A DNA stretch of 64,000 nucleotides, from the NCBI GenBank assembly GCA_963798915.1, contig CAWCVB010000001.1, forward strand, positions 64,001-128,000, in the 5' to 3' direction. The stretch's first letter is position 1; each line of letters begins with the position of its first letter. The translations under genes and the position numbers were made by a program. The stretch comes from an uncultured Gemmatimonadales bacterium. GTDB lineage: Bacteria > Gemmatimonadota > Gemmatimonadetes > Gemmatimonadales > GWC2-71-9. Below are positions 35,693 through 47,399 of the stretch, piece by piece. The notes beneath the pieces are model-generated. The model did not search any database, had not been told where the DNA came from, and was given only the letters and a program-made list of their open reading frames with translations.

Positions 35693-38188
<2,496 letters not shown>

Positions 38189-38343
38189 GGGGCTCGCAGG
38201 ATGTCAGACACGGGTGGCCGGCGGACGGGCCGGGGAACGCTGAAATGTAACCGGACGCGGGTAGGGAAGCAACCGGTCAGAGGCACCGTAAGTGTCTTCT
38301 GAACAACGGGTTAGGTGTCGCGACCGGGTGGGTGGAAAGATGG

Positions 38344-38695
38344 ATCCGTAGATTGCACCGATTGCCCAGACCTATCGATTCAGTCTGTGCGCTTTGGGAC
38401 CTCGGTCGATCTGCAGAAGTTGTCGAGCATCGAGACGGGCTAGGTCGTCAATCATCTCAAGGCCAGCGGGCTCGAGCGCGCATTGCTGCTCAACTTCGGT
38501 GCGCCACCGCTGGAGTACCGGCGCCAGGTGTCGACGGATTATCTCGATGAATCCACAGATTGCACCGATTTCACAGATGCGTCGGGGTAATCGGCGTCAT
38601 GTGCGGACGCATCAACGTACAGCGAACCCGCTAAGGGCGTTCGCCGAGTCTCCGGAGTTCGCTGGTAAATCTGGGCAATCAGTGAAACCTGTGGA
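38344..38695. repeat. CACAGAT-type element with imperfect terminal inverted repeats enclosing a GxxExxY remnant
   Basis: tccgtagattgcaccgattgcccaga (38345) versus the reverse complement of atctgggcaatcagtgaaacctgtgga (38669-38695); internal arm at 38551. Confidence 0.7.
38414..38545 (+). pseudogene. C-terminal remnant of a GxxExxY protein (PD-(D/E)XK superfamily)
   Basis: Manual translation QKLSSIETG*VVNHLKASGLERALLLNFGAPPLEYRR matches the AQ.xNYLKA.....GLLLNFG...L..KR C-terminus. In-frame TAG at 38441. Not in the ORF track. Confidence 0.75.
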
Positions 38696-38749
38696 CCCGC
38701 CAAGGGCTGTCCGGCCATGGTGCCGGAGCAGCCGGCCGTTGGCGTCGCC

Positions 38750-39017
38750 CTAGGACTCGTCGCGCTGGCCCGCCGAGGCGAAGCGCTCTGTGAGCGAGTC
38801 GGCGGGCCTGGCGCCCTCAACCGTGACCTTGAATCCTTCGGATGTCGTGAGCGCAGAAACCACCCCTCCGGTCGCACTCACAACACGTGAGGCAACACCA
38901 CCTGCTCCAAGTAGGCCGCTCGAAGAAGCTCGAAGAGCGCCTCCCGCATCAAGAGCTGCCCCGCTGACACCTCCAGCCATGCCAGCTGCCATCGGAGCCA
39001 TAACCAAGGCCTCCGCA
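38750..39017 (-). pseudogene. Orphan fragment resembling an Rhs C-terminal (pre-toxin/toxin) region
   Basis: Gly/Ala-rich AAGMAGGVSGAALDAGG...GGVVSALTTSEGFKVTVEG; many T/A-ending codons unlike core genes; same strand as and downstream of the Rhs core. Confidence 0.4.
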
Positions 39018-39027
39018 GGCCGCCGAC

Positions 39028-39600
39028 TCACCTCCCTCCTGCGGGCCGGTGGCCTCGTTGTGCCTCCTCCCATTCTGCGGTCAACCCGAGGACGGCGACC
39101 CAGCCCTGGATGTAGGCCAGGTCCAACTCCGCGCCGCGGACCTCGAGGAGTCCGGTCACGTCCTCGATCTGCCGTCGTGACCCGCCCAGCTTCGCCCACT
39201 CCAGTTTGGCCAGGAGCACATCCTCCGCCGTGGCGACATAAAGAGACAGGCCCTCGAGGTTCGCCCGGACTCGACGGTCGAACTCCGTCCGGCTGAAAGG
39301 CCGGGACTTCCGGCAGATGAAGTCGATCTTCCATCCGGTCGACATGTCGATCACGTTGAACTGCGATTCCTGTCGGTGGGCCTCGAGCGCGGCCGCCTCA
39401 TCGGCGTAGTACTCGCTGGGTGGCAGCGAGCGGATGAGAGCGCGGAGCTGGTCGGGGGACGGCGCTATGACGAAGTCAATGTCCTGAGTGGCGCGCGGGC
39501 GCCCGTGGTAGGCGCTCGCAAACGACCCGGTCAACATGTACGGGATGTCGGCGTCCTCTAGCCGGGCGACCATCCGCCCGAAGAAATCAGCCGCCGCCAT
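39028..39600 (-). CDS. Pol-beta-superfamily nucleotidyltransferase-like protein
   Basis: YMLTGSFAS..HG.PRATQDIDFV, KIDF, EDVLLAKLEW, RQIEDV. Confidence 0.75.
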   Translation of the reverse strand: MAAADFFGRMVARLEDADIPYMLTGSFASAYHGRPRATQDIDFVIAPSPDQLRALIRSLPPSEYYADEAAALEAHRQESQFNVIDMSTGWKIDFICRKSRPFSRTEFDRRVRANLEGLSLYVATAEDVLLAKLEWAKLGGSRRQIEDVTGLLEVRGAELDLAYIQGWVAVLGLTAEWEEAQRGHRPAGGR

Positions 39601-39826
39601 TCGGGTGGGGACGGAGGTCGGCACCCACCAGGGTCAGGCGGAGGGCCTGACGGTGCACCCGGGCCTGCGGCCACTCGGGATGCTCGGTCCGGAGCCGGGC
39701 GGCGAGCAGCGCCCGGGCCGCGAGGCTCATGTCCACGGCAAGTTCCAAGCGGCGCTCGGGTAGCAGGCGGCGAAGCACGCCCACTTGCGCCTCGGCCGCC
39801 GCCAGCGAAGTGTCGGTTTTCGGCAT
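39587..39826 (-). CDS. Small (79 aa) helical protein overlapping the nucleotidyltransferase; possible TA partner
   Basis: MPKTDTSLAAAEAQVGVLRRLLPERRLELAVDMS...HPEW; GGAG upstream; its stop overlaps the NTase start. Confidence 0.65.
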   Translation of the reverse strand: MPKTDTSLAAAEAQVGVLRRLLPERRLELAVDMSLAARALLAARLRTEHPEWPQARVHRQALRLTLVGADLRPHPNGGG

Positions 39827-39853
39827 GGGGTCAGGCTCCTCCGCGAGACAAGC

Positions 39854-40081
39854 AATATACCCCTCCGCAAGGCCCGCGTCCTCACCCAGAAGGCCCTGGC
39901 CGCGCTGGTCAACCTCTCCCTCAGCCAGATCCACCGCTACGAGGCCGGCACCGCCCAGCCTGCCCTGAACGGCATCCGAAAGCTCGCCCGCGCCCTCCGG
40001 GTCTCCGCCGACAGTCTCGTCTTCGGGCAAGATGAGGGTGGCCCCGACGAGGAGCTCCGGCTTCAGCTCGAGGCCGTCAAT
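39854..40081 (+). pseudogene. XRE-family HTH regulator fragment, truncated at both ends
   Basis: LRKARVLTQKALAALVNLSLSQIHRYEAGTAQPALNGIRKLARALRVSADSLVFGQDEGGPDEELRLQLEAV; no proper start; the 3' end runs into the Rhs end. Confidence 0.75.
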
Positions 40082-40358
40082 CCGGCGGACACAGTCCAAA
40101 GGGATCCGTGAAGGTACGGGATTATTCCCGGCGTAGGCGTAGAGATTCACCCCGCCGGCCAAGCCGATCGGATCCTGGCTGAGGAACCGCCCGGTCTGGG
40201 GATCATACCACCGGTTCCGCAGGTAGACATAGCCCCCACCGCCCGCACTGGTGGGCGTGCCGGCGCCCGCGAAGCCCAGGCCCGTATGCGTCTCCAGGCT
40301 GCTTGCGGCCGTGCTGCCACTCTCCAGCTTGCCAAACGCGTTCCGGAGGTAGAAGCCG

Positions 40359-40486
40359 ATCCGCAGATGACACAGATGAAAACAAGCGATGACGCAGATG
40401 GCTCGGGAGTAAGTCCGGCACAATCTGCGTCATCTTCTCGCCATGAAATGAAACCCGCTACCTCACTTCTGCGGCATCTGCGGAAT
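40359..40486. repeat. CACAGAT-type palindromic element inside the Rhs gene
   Basis: atccgcagatgacacagatg...gacgcagatg / atctgcgtcatc...ctgcggcatctgcgga. Confidence 0.8.
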
Positions 40487-40824
40487 CACGTAGCGCTGCT
40501 GGATCCGCCAGGTGGTCCCGGTCGAGGGGCGGACCAGGGTAAAGGCGACGTCATTGCCGTCGTACACATAGTAGGTCCGGAAGCCCACCGTGCTGTCGGG
40601 ATTGGCCCCGTCCAGTGCCCGGGCAGTGGTGGTGGCGAGATGGGTCATGAAGCGCCGGCCGCTGCCATCGTACCAGGTCCAGACGTGGTCATAGGGCCCG
40701 GTCACTGCCTCCGGCGTCATGCTGTAATACAACTGGCCCGCCGCGGTCCAGCTGCTCACGCCCCAGAGGGCGAAGAGGCCGGTGCCGCGGTCCAGCGTGG
40801 CCAGCCGCTGCCCCGCCTGAGTCG

Positions 40825-40945
40825 ATCACAGATGGCACAGATGAAAAACAATGACGCAGATGACGCAGGGCGGATCCCGAGCCATCTGCGTCATCCTCTC
40901 ACCGGGGCACCGTCGCTCTCGGGTCACAGCTGCGTCATCTGTGGA
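40825..40945. repeat. CACAGAT-type palindromic element inside the Rhs gene
   Basis: atcacagatggcacagatg...gacgcagatgacgcag / catctgcgtcatc...ctgcgtcatctgtgga. Confidence 0.8.
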
Positions 40946-43900
40946 CCCGCTACCGTTCCCGGCCACGCCGTCCGAACTGCTCAGGAGCCGCCGGGTCCAG
41001 CTGGTCGAGTCGTAGTTGAAGCGCACCGGCCCCATGTTGGCTCGCCGGGTCTCGTCGGCACTCCGGATCTCGCCCAGGGCCGAGAAGACCGGGTTGCCAA
41101 AGGAATAGCGGATGGTGCTCCCCACCTTTTCCACCACATGGTCCACCCAGCCGTGGCTGTCGTAGTGGGTGCTCCGGGTGACCGGGGCCGAGGTGCCCTT
41201 GAGCTTGACGGTGCGGAGGGTGTCCCGCCCGCCCTTGTCATAGAGGAAGCTCACGCTGGCCAGGCTGTCGGTGGCTCCGGTGCTGGTGGTCACCAGATGG
41301 ACCAGCGGGTGAGCCGGGCCGTGAGCGAGTCGTACACATAATGAATGGCGCCGCCCTTGTCCCCGCTGAATTGCTGGCCGCTGGCCAGGGTCACGGCATC
41401 CGTCTCCCCGGTCCGCTGGCCCCGGCGGTTATAGGTCAGGCTCCGGGTGGCCGTCGCCAGCCCGCCCTCGAACACCACCGTGTCGCCGGTGAGCTGCCCC
41501 ACGGCACTCCAGCCATGATGCCGGAGCAGCCGGTAATCGCCCAGGTACTCGTCGTGCATCACTTCATCCAACAGCCGGCCCTTGGCGTCGTAGTAGAACT
41601 CGTAGCGCTGCCCCGCCGAGCTGAGCCGGCCCATGCCCACGCCCAGGGAATCCCAGGCCGCCTCGACCCCCGGCTCGGCGAAGCGCTCGTCATCCACCGC
41701 CAGCCCGCCGCCCACATGGACAGGAATTTCTGGTAGGGCCGCCCCTGCCAGTCATACAGGATGCCGACGTAACTGCCGTTCCCTACGAAGGCGTAGACCG
41801 GCTGGCCCAGCGGGTCCCGGATCCAGCTCTGCTTGCGGGAGCGGTTGATGCCGTGGTGGTCCGGCTCCCCGGCCCGATCACGGAGTCCGGCTGGCCCAGG
41901 AGGTTGTACCAGGTGCGGGTCTTCTGGACAAAGCTGTCCAGCGGTATGAGCAGCGCCGACACCGCATCAGCCGAGGCATAGACGTGCACCGAGTCCACCA
42001 GCCCGCCCTTGCCATAGAACATCCGGGTGGTCGGCGCGTTGCTGCCGGTGCCGGTCTTGGAGGCCAGCACTCGGCCCAAAGGGTCTCGCTTGAACCGGGT
42101 GGCGATGCGAGCGGGTCTATGGTCGAGTCGGGTCGGCCATAGCTGTCGTAATAGACGTGCGTCTGTGGCCCGCCCGGCGCCGTGACGATGCTGGTATTCC
42201 AGGTGGCGCTTTCATAGGCCACGCTGGAGAGGAGGCTGTTCCCGTCCCGCACTGAATCGGACGGGTGGCCGAGGGGATTCCCGCTGTTGTCAGCGCACCA
42301 TAGGTGAAGACCGTCGTGTCCCCGCCAGGCGCCACGATCTTGCACGGGCAGGCATTTGGCCGCGCCCGTTGCCGTCCCGTACACGATGGTGGTGGGCACC
42401 TTGAGCGCGTCCTTGGACCAGAGCAGCCGGGAACACCAGGCGCCACTGGTCAAGGTGACCGAGTCGTACGCGAACGTGAGCGTATCGAGGGTGATGCCGG
42501 TCGGCGCCGGATACGCCAGCGTGTTGCGGCGCACCATGGTGACCCGGCTGAGGGCGTCATAGCTGTACATCACCGAGTCCGGCGTGGTGACCACCGGATC
42601 GCCATGCACGATCTTGGTCACCCGTCCCAGCGTATCCCGCTCGATGCTGCGGATGTCATCGGCCGCGGATGAGGGGATGTAGAACCCGCCCGGGAACTGG
42701 CCGTCCGGAGACCATCCGGACCCAGGTGGGAGAGCCGAACCGGTCCACCTGATAGTCGGTGGCATGGTTCCCGGCATCCACGAGCGTTCCGCGGACCTGA
42801 TTGGGAAACAGCAACCGCTCGAGTGGCTGGCCATTGTGGCCATACGCCATCCGGGGCGCCGCTCGCCGGGTGGCGTCGCGGAAGTTGGCGAAATTCTGCA
42901 GTCCCGGCCCGGTAAAGCCGGACGGCGTATGTAGCGAGTCGTCAAACTGGAATCGCTGCGCGATGAGCGCCGTTCCCTGCCGCCTGGGCGAGATGACCGA
43001 GTCGATCATGGCGCGGTTGAGGGCGTCGGTCTTGTAGGTGAAACGGGTGGTATCCGGCTAGTCGCGTCGGTGCAGAATCAAGTGCGTGAGCCGGCAGGCA
43101 AAGGCGCCACCGACAGCAGACGGACAGTACACGCGAAGGTCCGCCACGGTCGTGGTAGAGCCACTGAGCGTTGGATACACATCGACCGCTGCCACCTGCC
43201 AGCTGCCCGTGAAGTACCGGAACTTGAACGCCGTCCGCTCGGGTCCACCACGTAGCCGATGCGCGCCGTGGTTCCCGAATACAGGAAGTCGGTGTAGTTG
43301 CCGACCAGGTCCTTGGTCCAAAGCTGCCAGCCATCGCTCGGAACCCGACCGTTGCGCCGTTATCAAGGTAGAGCGCCCAGCTGCTCCATGCTCGGTGGTG
43401 GCTGCAGCGCCCGTTCTCACCCGGCGGCGGCTGCCAGGCGCCGCTGCCGGTCTTCCGGTACACCGAATACGAGCCATCGCCGCTGACTAGCACCGCAGCC
43501 GAGTCGGTGCCCATCATCAGTCCGGTGGCCAGGCGCGACAATTCGGCCAGTTGCCAGCCGGTGCCGAACCGGGTCATCGCCGTATCCACGAGCGACGTCT
43601 GCACGATATACTGGGTCACCGTGTCAGTGATGGGCCCGGAGAGGTAGTAGGCCTGAACCGCCACCTTCACTTGCCGAATGGTGGCCGGCGCGGTGGTATT
43701 CATATTGTCCACCACGGCGCTGAAGACCCGCGACTCATTCGCGTTCTCCCACAGGTTCAGGGCGCCGGCGCCGGCGACACTTCCCTTGGTGCCGGCATAA
43801 TGGAGGACGGGGCCAGCCACCACGCCGTTCACGCGGGGTGTGACGACGATCGAATCGGGCGCGGCGATCTGGCGCGGGATGTCTACCCGGATCGGCAGGA

Positions 43901-45875
43901 TGGTCTGCACCCGCTGGGACCCCGAGCGATAGACCAGATGCAGATCCCTCGGCTTGTCACGCGTGACAAACCCCGGGATGGTCTGAGTCAGGAAGGTCTC
44001 GCCGCATTGGAAGGGTCCGAAGGCGGCGCACTCGCCCATGTCGCGCTTGAGGAAGCTGGCGAGCGGGGTGAGCGCCAGGTGCGTGGGCGGACCCGTCGGC
44101 AGATGGACAAAGCGGGCACGCACGGATGACCGATGCCCCGTCGAGTCGGCAATGCTGGCCACGATCTCGTTCCAGCCGCCGGAGTCGGCAAAGGGACAGC
44201 CCTCCACGTAGGCATGCAGCAGGGAGCTGCTGTTGGGCAGGGTGACCGTCGATTGCAGCTGGGTCAGCGAGGCCACCACCACGCCGCTGGCCACGCTCTG
44301 GCCGTTGTTGACGATCAGCGTGTCGTTGAGCCAGATCTTGAGCGTTGCCGTATTGATAGCACCGGGATCGGGCACCCGCGCATTCCATGTCGCCGGCTGC
44401 AACGCCTTGCCGAGTTGCCCTCGCGATTCGGCTCCGCCAGAGCGGGGTCGGCTCGGCAGTGCCGGTCACCGGCCGGGGCCAGTTGATCCCTGGCTGCAGC
44501 GGCGGCCACATCCCTCCATCCGGCACCGCATCGAACGCCAGGTCTCCGTAGGGGTACCCGGTCCAGAGCGTGTCCGTCGGGCTCGTGCCGGTCCACCAGT
44601 TGTAGTTGAAGTCCTCGCCATCGATGTAGCCGTAGTCCGCACACGTCGTGGGATCGGTGTCGCTGTGATCGACCGTGATCGTCTTGATGCTGAGGAGATC
44701 ATTGGCGCTGACCGATGCCGCGAAGACCAGGCCCCCGGGCAAGCCATTCGCGGCCGGTTGGGACAGAAAGCTGGACGGCTGATCGATCCTGATCTCCGGT
44801 GCACTCTGCTGCTCGGGACAGCCACGCAGTTCGGGCGGCGGCAGCGGCAGCCCGCCGAGCAGGCCCACAATACCGAAACCGTCAGGAAGCGGGAGCGAAT
44901 CGTCCAGCTCCCAGGTGCTGGAGCCGACCTGGTAGAAACCTGTCTGGAAGTATTCGCACCGGGCGACCGTAGCCTTGCAGGCGTACGTCTTCCAGGTGTA
45001 GGTGCCGCCCGAGAGCCGGAGACGCGGAATACCCAGCCGCCGACTTGGTGATCGAACTGGTCACCTCCTGGGTCCCCATCCAGACCCGGACTGATGCGAG
45101 GTTGACGGGCTGCTGTGAACGACGCCTGCATGGGAACGTTGAAACTGCGCACGCCATCGTCAGCAGGGATCACGTGGGCCACGATCGGCTCGCCAATGAC
45201 CGAGAAGCTCCGGAGCTCGGTATCATCCAGCACCTCGGTGCCGCCGCCGGATGACGGCGACATCTGCGGCGATACCTGCGATGTGGACTGCGCCACCAGG
45301 GGATCACCACCACTGCTCACGCCGTAGAGCTTGACGGTCACCGACCCGGTGCCGAGGCCGTAGCCATGCACCGTAATCGAGGCATTGGAATACCCGCCGG
45401 CGCCGAGCGGCTTGAGGTCGCCGGGCGACGCATCGGTACACCGTACCTGGCTGGTGGCCGTGCAGGTAATGCGGAAGGAGCCGGCCGTCGCCGTGTAGTT
45501 GTGGACCTGGACGGTGACGACCAAGGTGCTTTCGACCGCGATCGTCTTGGGCGGATTGAACAGGCTGACATTGAAGTGCGCCTCAGTGCCGATGATCTGT
45601 GGCGCTGCCACTGCCATGCCCTTTACCCTGCCCGCCGGCCTGCGCCCGTGCCGCGGACGGTAGGACAATGCTGAAGAGCGCCAGCGCCAGAGCAGGCTTC
45701 CTGAACGGACCGGTCACACGGGTCTCCATGGAGAGGATGCCCTTGGAAGGGCAGAGCCCGTACCACACCATCGACGTGCCTATGGCCTTGATTCACAACG
45801 ACTTCAGCCAGCCAGCCTGTCGCATTTGTCGCAATTGTCGCATCCGCTGACGGGTGGAATGCGACGTTTGCAACA

Positions 45876-45944
45876 ATCCACAGATGCACCGATTTCACCG
45901 ATGAATTCCGCAAACCGATCGGCGCAATCGGTGTCATCTGTGGA
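45876..45944. repeat. CACAGAT-type palindromic element upstream of the Rhs gene
   Basis: atccacagatgcaccgatttcaccgat ... atcggcgcaatcggtgtcatctgtgga. Confidence 0.8.
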
Positions 45945-46139
45945 CCAAACTGCGTAATCAGTGCACCCGCCGTATACTGTGGGATACCCGCGCTCAGGGC
46001 AAGCTGCAGGTCGCTGGTCGATGACGACTGACGACTGACGACTGACGACTGATAACCGTCGACCACCTACGCCCCATGCCCTGCTTATAATCCCATAGTC
46101 GCGTCACCCCTGGCGCAGCCATTCTGCCACGGACCTCGC

Positions 46140-47051
46140 ATGCCTGCACTGCGCTCCATTCTCGACCCGCTCTGGCGGGCACTGAACGCCCCCATCGCCA
46201 ATTCGCCCTTCACGCTGCTGAAGCTGCTGATCATCCTGCTCGCCCTGGGTCTGCTGATCTGGGCGGTGGGGCGGGCGACCCGCTGGCTGGTGGAACGCAT
46301 CTTCGTGCGCCGAGGGGTGGATCCGGGCGTGGCTCAGGCGGTCGGGACGCTGATTCGCTATGGCGCGGTCACCATCGGTTTCGTGGTCATCCTGCAGAGC
46401 GCCGGCATCGACCTCACCGCCTTCACGGTGCTCTTCGGCGCCCTGGGCGTGGGCATCGGCTTCGGCCTCCAGAACATTGCCAACAATTTTGTGAGCGGGC
46501 TGGTGCTGCTGTTCGAGCGTCCGGTCAAGATCGGTGACCGGGTGGTGGTGGGCGACGTGACCGGCACGGTCCGCCAGATCGGCGCCCGGGCCACGGTCGT
46601 AGTGACCAACGACAACATCGCGATCGTGGTGCCCAACTCGGAGTTCATCTCCGAACGGGTGATCAACTGGAGTCTCACCGGTGCGCTGGTCCGGCTCAGC
46701 ATCAACGTCGGGGTGTCCTACGCCGCCGATCCGGAGCAGGTGCGGGAGGTGCTGATGCGGGTGGCCCAGGCGAGTGATGTGGTGGAACAGTCGCCGGCGC
46801 CGGAGGTGCGCTTTCTCGAGTTCGGCGAGAGCTCGCTCAATTTCCAGCTGCTGGTCTGGACCCGGCAACATATCGCGACCCCCGACGTGCTCCGGAGCCG
46901 GATGAATTTTGCCATCGCCGCCGCCTTCCGCAGTGCGGGCGTGGAAATCCCCTTCCCCCAGCGGGATCTGCATATCCGGTCAGGGGTGCTGGAGGTGAGG
47001 CTCGACAGGACGCGCATGGCGGGCGGGACGGGCATGACGGGCGGGAGCTGA
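46140..47051 (+). CDS. Small-conductance mechanosensitive channel (MscS family)
   Basis: GALGVGIGFGLQNIANNFVSG, ERPVKIGD, VPNS, IPFPQRDL. Confidence 0.93.
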   Translation: MPALRSILDPLWRALNAPIANSPFTLLKLLIILLALGLLIWAVGRATRWLVERIFVRRGVDPGVAQAVGTLIRYGAVTIGFVVILQSAGIDLTAFTVLFGALGVGIGFGLQNIANNFVSGLVLLFERPVKIGDRVVVGDVTGTVRQIGARATVVVTNDNIAIVVPNSEFISERVINWSLTGALVRLSINVGVSYAADPEQVREVLMRVAQASDVVEQSPAPEVRFLEFGESSLNFQLLVWTRQHIATPDVLRSRMNFAIAAAFRSAGVEIPFPQRDLHIRSGVLEVRLDRTRMAGGTGMTGGS

Positions 47052-47240: not shown

Positions 47241-47399
47241 GGTCGTCAGTCGTCGGTCGTCGGTCTTCATTGCGAGGCAGCGTCAGTCTCCTTCAGCGAG
47301 CACCGCGAGCGAAGGGCCGGACGCCCGAGTGAGCTTCGGTCCCCTCACTATGCTCGGATGACATGCCGCGACGACCGACGACCGACGATCGACGACCTC
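47241..47399. repeat. Inverted heptamer runs enclosing a degenerate GTCAT-type element (47267-47363)
   Basis: ggtcgtcagtcgtcggtcgtcggtc-tcattgcgag...ctcactatgctcggatgaca-gacgaccgacgaccgacg. Confidence 0.75.

Follow-up and report, generated by a model that had tools for sequence, protein, structure and literature searches.

Two related palindromic elements, E1 and E2, stand in place of conserved coding sequence in a dead Rhs toxin-delivery gene of an uncultured soil bacterium of the Gemmatimonadales. The best explanation, to which we give a somewhat better than even chance, is that they are gene-less hairpin cassettes of a nuclease-linked family, which would spread by breakage and copying while neighbouring target DNA is lost. 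Nuclease-linked hairpin repeats (e.g., REP/RAYT and NTS/Ssn) are known shapers of bacterial genomes, and the present family, referred to here by its CACAGAT/CGCAGAT arms, looks like an unpublished branch with a nuclease of another fold. The new observations are a measured replacement of coding sequence, a decayed parent copy nearby, a pattern at Rhs edges in four genera, and a slot in an AddB-like gene. The window is the whole stretch of 64,000 nucleotides that was analysed (G000:C1:64001-128000), from an assembly of 3.3 Mb in 17 contigs with 66% G+C and 84.8% completeness; coordinates without a contig or locus name are window positions.

The host gene and its surroundings comprise the following features:
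40083-45106, minus strand: Rhs pseudogene, collinear with full-length Rhs proteins, with at least eight frame changes
40115-40357, minus strand: Rhs-associated core domain TIGR03696 (E 2.8e-17), beginning directly after E1
40487-40819, minus strand: open Rhs piece of 111 codons lying between E2 and E1, in a frame common to both neighbouring pieces
38699-38801, minus strand: orphan Rhs fragment, 83-86% identical in DNA to parts of 41498-41620 and ending flush with the E3b right arm
39031-39826, minus strand: toxin-antitoxin pair that follows the truncated Rhs; context, outside the elements

Rhs proteins of 1711-2055 aa align collinearly over the whole stretch from 45.1 to 40.1 kb on the minus strand, in frame-changing pieces. 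The YD-repeat profile TIGR01643 matches the pseudogene upstream of the TIGR03696 core, and the gene possesses YD repeats, an Rhs-associated core and a DPxGL end. An intact frame and a C-terminal toxin tip were also looked for in the host gene and were absent, given its frame changes and the three stops within the elements. The frameshifts are single-base events outside long homopolymers. The DPFGL end motif was found past one of them, with a stop four codons later; the frame closes as ..DPFGLCPPD and a stop codon, and the toxin tip has therefore been lost. Because the remaining genes in the window have long, open frames, the damage is local and the Rhs gene is a dead pseudogene.

Four elements and one gene remnant were delimited in and around this pseudogene:
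40358-40486, no strand assigned: E1, 129-bp gene-less hairpin with CGCAGAT/CACAGAT arms, 43 codon positions, two in-frame TGA
40820-40951, no strand assigned: E2, 132-bp non-Rhs stretch (element proper 40825-40945), 44 codon positions, one in-frame TGA
38342-38698, no strand assigned: E3, a composite in which a left arm and what remains of a nuclease gene are combined with E3b (38549-38698), itself a complete gene-less copy
38411-38539, plus strand: GxxExxY/PDDEXK_3 nuclease remnant inside E3, C-terminal third only, with an in-frame TAG
45877-45944, no strand assigned: E4, gene-less hairpin copy of 68 bp, located upstream of the Rhs start

E1, E2, E3b and E4 all possess inverted arms of units of about 9 bases with a conserved heptamer core, the arms being arrays of such units that end in ..ATCTGTGGAYC. 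When folded as single-stranded DNA, the elements gave z-scores of -5.4 (E1), -2.7 (E2), -5.7 (E4) and -3.2 (E3b). The arm motif ATCTGTGNNATCTGTGGA, allowing up to three mismatches, matches the window 11 times where 0.42 matches are expected, always within 38345-45944; none of 100 shuffles reached 11, the largest count being 4. The matches of an Rfam scan of 37000-47000 were all look-alikes of microRNAs and snoRNAs and scored 21.7-26.4 bits, below the gathering scores of 50-70. A reading of the arms as DnaA boxes or operators was rejected by reasoning, since the copies reach hundreds and form inverted pairs, and only TGTG..A fits a DnaA box.

E1 and E2 are identical in 81 of 129 aligned columns and have one layout, namely two outer units, then a gap of 10 bases, a pair of inner units and, in the right arm, a gap of 34-37 bases. 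This odd shared layout disfavours separate fusions of two insertions, and E1 and E2, judged by their sequences, are sister copies.

The replacement of Rhs sequence can be measured at both sites. Read on the minus strand from 41428 to 39590, with TGA translated as X, the gene is a single open frame whose sole three stops fall inside E1 and E2. The two related palindromic elements that the preliminary description had placed within Rhs frames were recovered at the same positions. The junctions read ..RIQQRYV/E1/GFYLRNAFG.. and ..GVAGNG/E2/(ST)QAGQRL... A phmmer search with the window Rhs covered 1.84 billion representatives and yielded 34,948 hits; P0002, the best homologue, aligns in one continuous stretch at 60% identity (query 43-445 to target 42-456). 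YD-repeat sequence is conserved at the E1 and E2 sites in all nine homologues of a 10-sequence alignment (A1) and is absent at these sites in the window, as had been suspected. Identity to P0002 is 82/114, 77/112 and 68/79 in the three Rhs pieces, and 5/40 (E1) and 7/42 (E2) across the element-encoded residues. At the E1 site, 43 codon-equivalents occupy the place of 45 residues in P0002 (about 135 bp of Rhs absent); at the E2 site, 44 stand for about 56 residues (about 168 bp absent). Alignment to the closest homologue, which the preliminary description had proposed as a check, therefore puts the loss at 45 and about 56 codons.

The element sequence does not occur in the coding DNA of the intact homologues. 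Direct repeats and target duplications were sought at the E1 and E2 junctions and none flanks either element, in agreement with the first inspection; with codons lost and no duplication, these are not clean insertions of the standard kind. The earlier proposal that insertion was accompanied by deletion is upheld as regards the absent coding DNA, but not as regards simultaneous loss, since a later deletion fits equally well. Two insertions alone do not account for the state of the gene, which is a pseudogene with at least eight frame changes.

The net length change is -6 nt at E1 and about -36 nt at E2, both multiples of three. The chance of the frame being kept at both sites is about 1 in 9, and the retention of frame and near-equal length by both replacements is most likely a coincidence in an already dead gene. 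Recoding of TGA was dropped as an explanation, as the TGA codons in the elements follow from the arm sequence and the genome is a 66% G+C genome with normal genes.

E3 sits 1.7 kb away from E1/E2, and its E3b right arm abuts the orphan Rhs fragment. Its nuclease remnant has 70% identity over 43 aa to an intact gene of a same-genus genome. As E3 holds this GxxExxY remnant, it is a decayed nuclease-bearing copy, and E1, E2, E3b and E4 are gene-less derivatives. TIGR04256 matches the genome in two places, the E3 remnant and an intact gene at C15:59592-59939 (TIGR04256, 140 bits; PF13366 PDDEXK_3, E 1e-39). The latter is framed by inverted CGCGGAG/CGCAGAG unit arrays, and no other intact GxxExxY gene was found in the genome. 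This second arm type has 20 double-unit matches genome-wide against 6 for a reversed control. An intact CACAGAT-type nuclease gene was sought in the 84.8%-complete genome and none was found; the copies may therefore be fossils.

Five related genomes contain 22 GxxExxY matches, of which the 15 full-length ones were inspected. A unit array lies within 130 bp downstream of every one of these 15 genes, and matching inverted arrays are found on both sides of 7. The heptamer varies from gene to gene, 8 of the 15 being of the CACAGAT/CGCAGAT/CACGGAT class. The full-length form of the cassette thus carries a small PD-(D/E)XK nuclease gene (GxxExxY, PDDEXK_3). The heptamer type co-varies with the gene, and the nuclease may act on its own arms. 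The preliminary description had favoured cut-and-repair over classical transposition; the link to GxxExxY and the decayed copy in the island fit that idea, and the mechanism is plausible but unproven.

The data can also be accounted for by an ordinary clean insertion into an already dead Rhs gene, with codons later lost by palindrome-stimulated slippage or by recombination between copies and with the nuclease uninvolved. We regard this as rather unlikely, although a pseudogene with at least eight frame changes is under no selection against deletions, the nuclease gene of E3 has itself lost internal sequence, and junction positions vary among related sequences. Against this, both ends of E1 and of E2 are intact arm ends flush with coding sequence, the two elements have one architecture and neither resembles a two-copy recombinant, and arm-flush Rhs truncations recur in three other genera (see below).

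A member of the family also resides within an open gene. The element at C5:25206-25327 (L252, L265) falls, in frame and free of stops, within an AddB-like gene whose open frame spans 1037 aa and has a PDDEXK_1 domain at its C-terminus. In congeners, the same slot, with constant boundaries, holds different inserts: one CGCAGAT-type copy in G006, two in G002, and in G008 a hairpin of another heptamer type that encodes 28 aa. The AddB-like frames are open in all four congeners with inserts (G000, G006, G002 and G008), and two outgroup genomes have in the slot a linker of some 25 aa whose hairpin potential is weak (z -0.8 and -1.8). Inserts are thus exchanged at a fixed slot. The family can reside in coding sequence because 9 bases make three codons.

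A direct parallel to this AddB-like case is offered by the Rickettsia palindromic elements, which, in the parts of the published account used here, are about 150 bp long, lie inside protein-coding genes and are read in frame, their insertions adding peptide (PMC10969869). The AddB-like residence extends this Rickettsia-type phenomenon to another phylum. The Rhs sites differ from the same portion of that account (PMC10969869) in that conserved coding sequence is missing and the elements carry stops.

It has to be asked whether E1 and E2 were themselves translated inserts under selection, that is, Rickettsia-like in-frame replacements of similar size in a functional Rhs, with stops and frameshifts arising later. 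Frame and approximate length are kept at both sites, the unit is a multiple of three, and the AddB-like gene provides an in-frame example in four congeners. However, there are three in-frame TGA codons, one of which is tied to a 1-base arm loss whose repair would shift the frame; the replaced segments belong to the YD-repeat shell conserved in all nine homologues; and the reading phase of the arms is unlike that in the open AddB example. Such a history is therefore very unlikely in our judgement.

Across the genome, the CACAGAT/CGCAGAT family gave 20 double-unit matches and its reversed control none. Seven lie within C1:102554-109927, 7.4 kb around the Rhs gene, and the others are on C1, C2, C5, C6, C11, C14 and C16. 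The early impression that all copies are confined to the island therefore holds for the window (11 of 11 arm matches) but not for the genome, where 13 of 20 double-unit matches lie elsewhere. Within the bacterial family, 33 of the 201 genomes contain the arm motif, at 0-88 matches per genome with 0-1 for the reversed control; the family is thus dispersed and variable in copy number, in agreement with the earlier view that the elements are mobile. An empty-site comparison at C2:14508 found no conservation of the flanks at the DNA level in nine congeners. The solo arm at C1:131355 keeps its position among congeners and is hence uninformative on insertion; no pair of empty and filled alleles came to light.

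A scan of one genome per prokaryote species returned at least 126 stretches; single matches mean little, because about 280 are expected by chance in the collection. The matches listed include inverted pairs with a spacing of 40-250 bp from Alpha- and Gammaproteobacteria, Bacteroidota, Verrucomicrobiota, Planctomycetota, Lentisphaerota and Acidobacteriota, and such pairs cannot be of chance origin. Five distant genomes were checked, four of which have 92-257 arm matches and the fifth 9, with controls of 0. The literature yielded no account of the family in a text search with arm strings, which returned primers only and no paper containing the 16- and 17-base strings, or with the nuclease name, which occurs in three papers, two of them without it in title or abstract. 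The CACAGAT/CGCAGAT hairpin family is widespread and apparently undescribed.

Tandem arrays were seen in G094, with five 98-bp units each ending in a right arm (L034, 4043-4453) and three 288-bp units each consisting of a complete element and spacer (L035, 3331-4084). In a Prevotellaceae MAG (L104, 1200-1370), two hairpins lie inside a CACAGAT-arm element, and their core is the ATTCCCGCG..CGCGGGAAT of the published NTS/dRS3 repeat. Since these NTS-like hairpins are nested within CACAGAT arms, the two systems coexist and are not identical.

Rhs genes are mostly not a special target of the arms. Only 1 of 30 sampled arm loci adjoins an Rhs gene, and arms were found at none of 47 metagenome Rhs loci (scanned with P0005; loci mostly about 50% identical), at no point in the other Rhs array of the genome (C6), and not at a TGA-containing Rhs fragment in G084. 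None of the same-genus genomes has the window Rhs. Nevertheless, arms are joined to Rhs elsewhere. Among 149 non-self library hits, four have arm-encoded peptide abutting Rhs at positions other than E1/E2 (P0007, P0042 at both ends, P0072 and P0077); the identity of these four to the window Rhs is 68-88%. As the arms join this Rhs lineage at several other positions, later end-anchored deletions or independent hits fit equally well. Arms or GxxExxY genes lie within 1.5 kb of Rhs in 3 of 21 other Rhs-bearing genomes of the bacterial family.

Three other genera (G193, G094 and G087) also have 5'-truncated Rhs pieces with an arm flush against them. In G193 (L015), a right arm runs straight into an orphan Rhs piece that starts WYDAAG, and in G087 the sequence after a right arm reads ..NLYDGDGTRL. 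In G094, 9 of 12 GxxExxY matches lie inside an orphan-tip array downstream of an Rhs gene of full length, and four of six inspected orphan tips, with different C-termini, begin at an identical arm/WYDP junction. The array is partly a segmental duplication, and the four shared junctions are therefore not independent events. This G094 region (C3:1488800-1511000; L303, L304) contains the full-length Rhs gene and then at least seven orphan tips, interleaved with nine GxxExxY genes or fragments on the opposite strand. Separately, an odd tRNA-like gene of 93 nt whose anticodon has 2 bases was called by ARAGORN at L015 1413-1505 in G193; the 3' end of this gene enters the first of three left arms preceding the orphan Rhs piece.

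These junctions also bear on the possibility that the three Rhs pieces of the window are separately acquired cassettes, each with a 5' hairpin that would be no insertion but a recombination site for Rhs tip exchange. The order of arm and then Rhs C-terminal piece in P0007, P0072, P0077, L015 and G087, and the single arm/WYD junction shared by four G094 tips with different C-termini, are in keeping with it. We nonetheless consider it highly doubtful, as the window pieces are collinear, in one frame and 72, 69 and 86% identical to one homologue, the G094 junctions may be copies from segmental duplication, and no recombinase was found.

A broader proposal, which we consider unlikely and put forward only tentatively, is that GxxExxY cassettes of Gemmatimonadales might supply breakpoints or portable recombination sites for Rhs truncation and for the stacking or exchange of toxin tips. 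It is prompted by the arms flush with Rhs in four genera, the one recurring G094 junction and the concentration of GxxExxY matches in the tip array. If true, a nuclease-repeat system would help to drive the diversification of polymorphic toxins; the recurrent tie to toxin-tip arrays in four genera could bear on their reshuffling.

Rhs orphan modules and C-terminal displacement were reportedly treated by Jackson et al. in 2009. We know of no description of Rhs orphans in which the 5' edge is marked by a hairpin repeat or a nuclease cassette. Here, the 5' edge of the orphan coincides with an arm in four genera. In the portion of the source drawn on, a locus of orphan toxin modules has a main rhs gene, behind which lie core fragments that are 5'-truncated and bear alternative tips, and it is a rearrangement hotspot (PMC3150448); the present case is alike in this.

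The favoured explanation, of nuclease-linked cassettes that move by breakage and copying, rests on several observations, namely exact arm ends, missing target DNA, the lack of duplication, a nuclease gene as the only cargo of the family, turnover at a fixed slot, and variable Rhs-side endpoints beside constant arm ends. A break at or beside a hairpin would be repaired by copying from another copy, such that the cassette spreads or is rewritten. The element end would be kept precisely, while resection or deletion would remove neighbouring target DNA, upon entry or during later rounds. The outcome would resemble the adjacent deletions known for insertion sequences, which remove neighbouring DNA while the element end stays exact. 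Cut-and-repair with loss of target DNA is thus plausible, and deletion after insertion explains the data equally well. That the elements stand in for coding sequence constrains how they move, given their exact ends, the lost target DNA and the lack of duplication.

Comparable systems are known. REP and REPIN sequences are dispersed short palindromes present in tens to hundreds of copies, one or a few of which frame one small gene, RAYT (TnpA-REP). The RAYT gene is thought to act on REPs, and gene-less REP copies dominate. RAYT is a HUH Y1 transposase, and a REP is a single extragenic repeat with a GTAG head. The CACAGAT family is similar in comprising dispersed palindromes that are mostly gene-less, with some framing a small gene. 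However, that gene is a PF13366 PD-(D/E)XK (GxxExxY) gene with no HUH Y1 gene associated, the arms are arrays of three 9-base units, and E1 and E2 lie inside coding sequence.

Like MITEs, the CACAGAT elements have terminal inverted repeats, no coding region and many copies. A target-site duplication, a MITE trait, was absent at E1, E2, E3b, E4 and canonical G094 copies. A parent insertion sequence or transposase was sought between arm pairs 1-2.5 kb apart and at two loci of genus g61, and only ordinary genes were found.

The second comparable system, according to excerpts of its published description, is that of NTS/SRM hairpins, which occur in hundreds of copies and often flank a gene for the Ssn GIY-YIG single-strand nuclease across phyla (PMC11893778). 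In the same excerpts, Ssn cuts at its own NTS repeat and affects genome dynamics (PMC11893778). The CACAGAT family shares with this system, as far as it is outlined there, the association of hairpin repeats with a small nuclease gene across phyla. The two differ, on the same partial account (PMC11893778), in their repeats (an ATTCCC..GGGAAT core against CACAGAT unit arrays) and in fold (GIY-YIG, cd10448, against GxxExxY), and GxxExxY, compared with Ssn, is a predicted nuclease. Altogether, the CACAGAT family resembles REP/RAYT and NTS/Ssn in how it works but lacks the defining features of both, and those of classical MITEs.

Two further observations concern the surroundings of the window Rhs. 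The toxin-antitoxin pair at 39031-39826 consists of an AbiEii-like nucleotidyltransferase gene and, ahead of it, a small gene whose match to an Rv0078B-like antitoxin is weak. It occupies the place expected for an Rhs toxin tip and immunity gene, and a close homologue of the AbiEii-like gene adjoins family elements in L019. On the other side, TGACGAC-type tandem heptamer arrays lie at 46021-46057, 47241-47270 and 47370-47397; they are inverted about 1.2 kb apart (29 nt, 90% complementary), and this 7-base repeat style is also found elsewhere in the genome.
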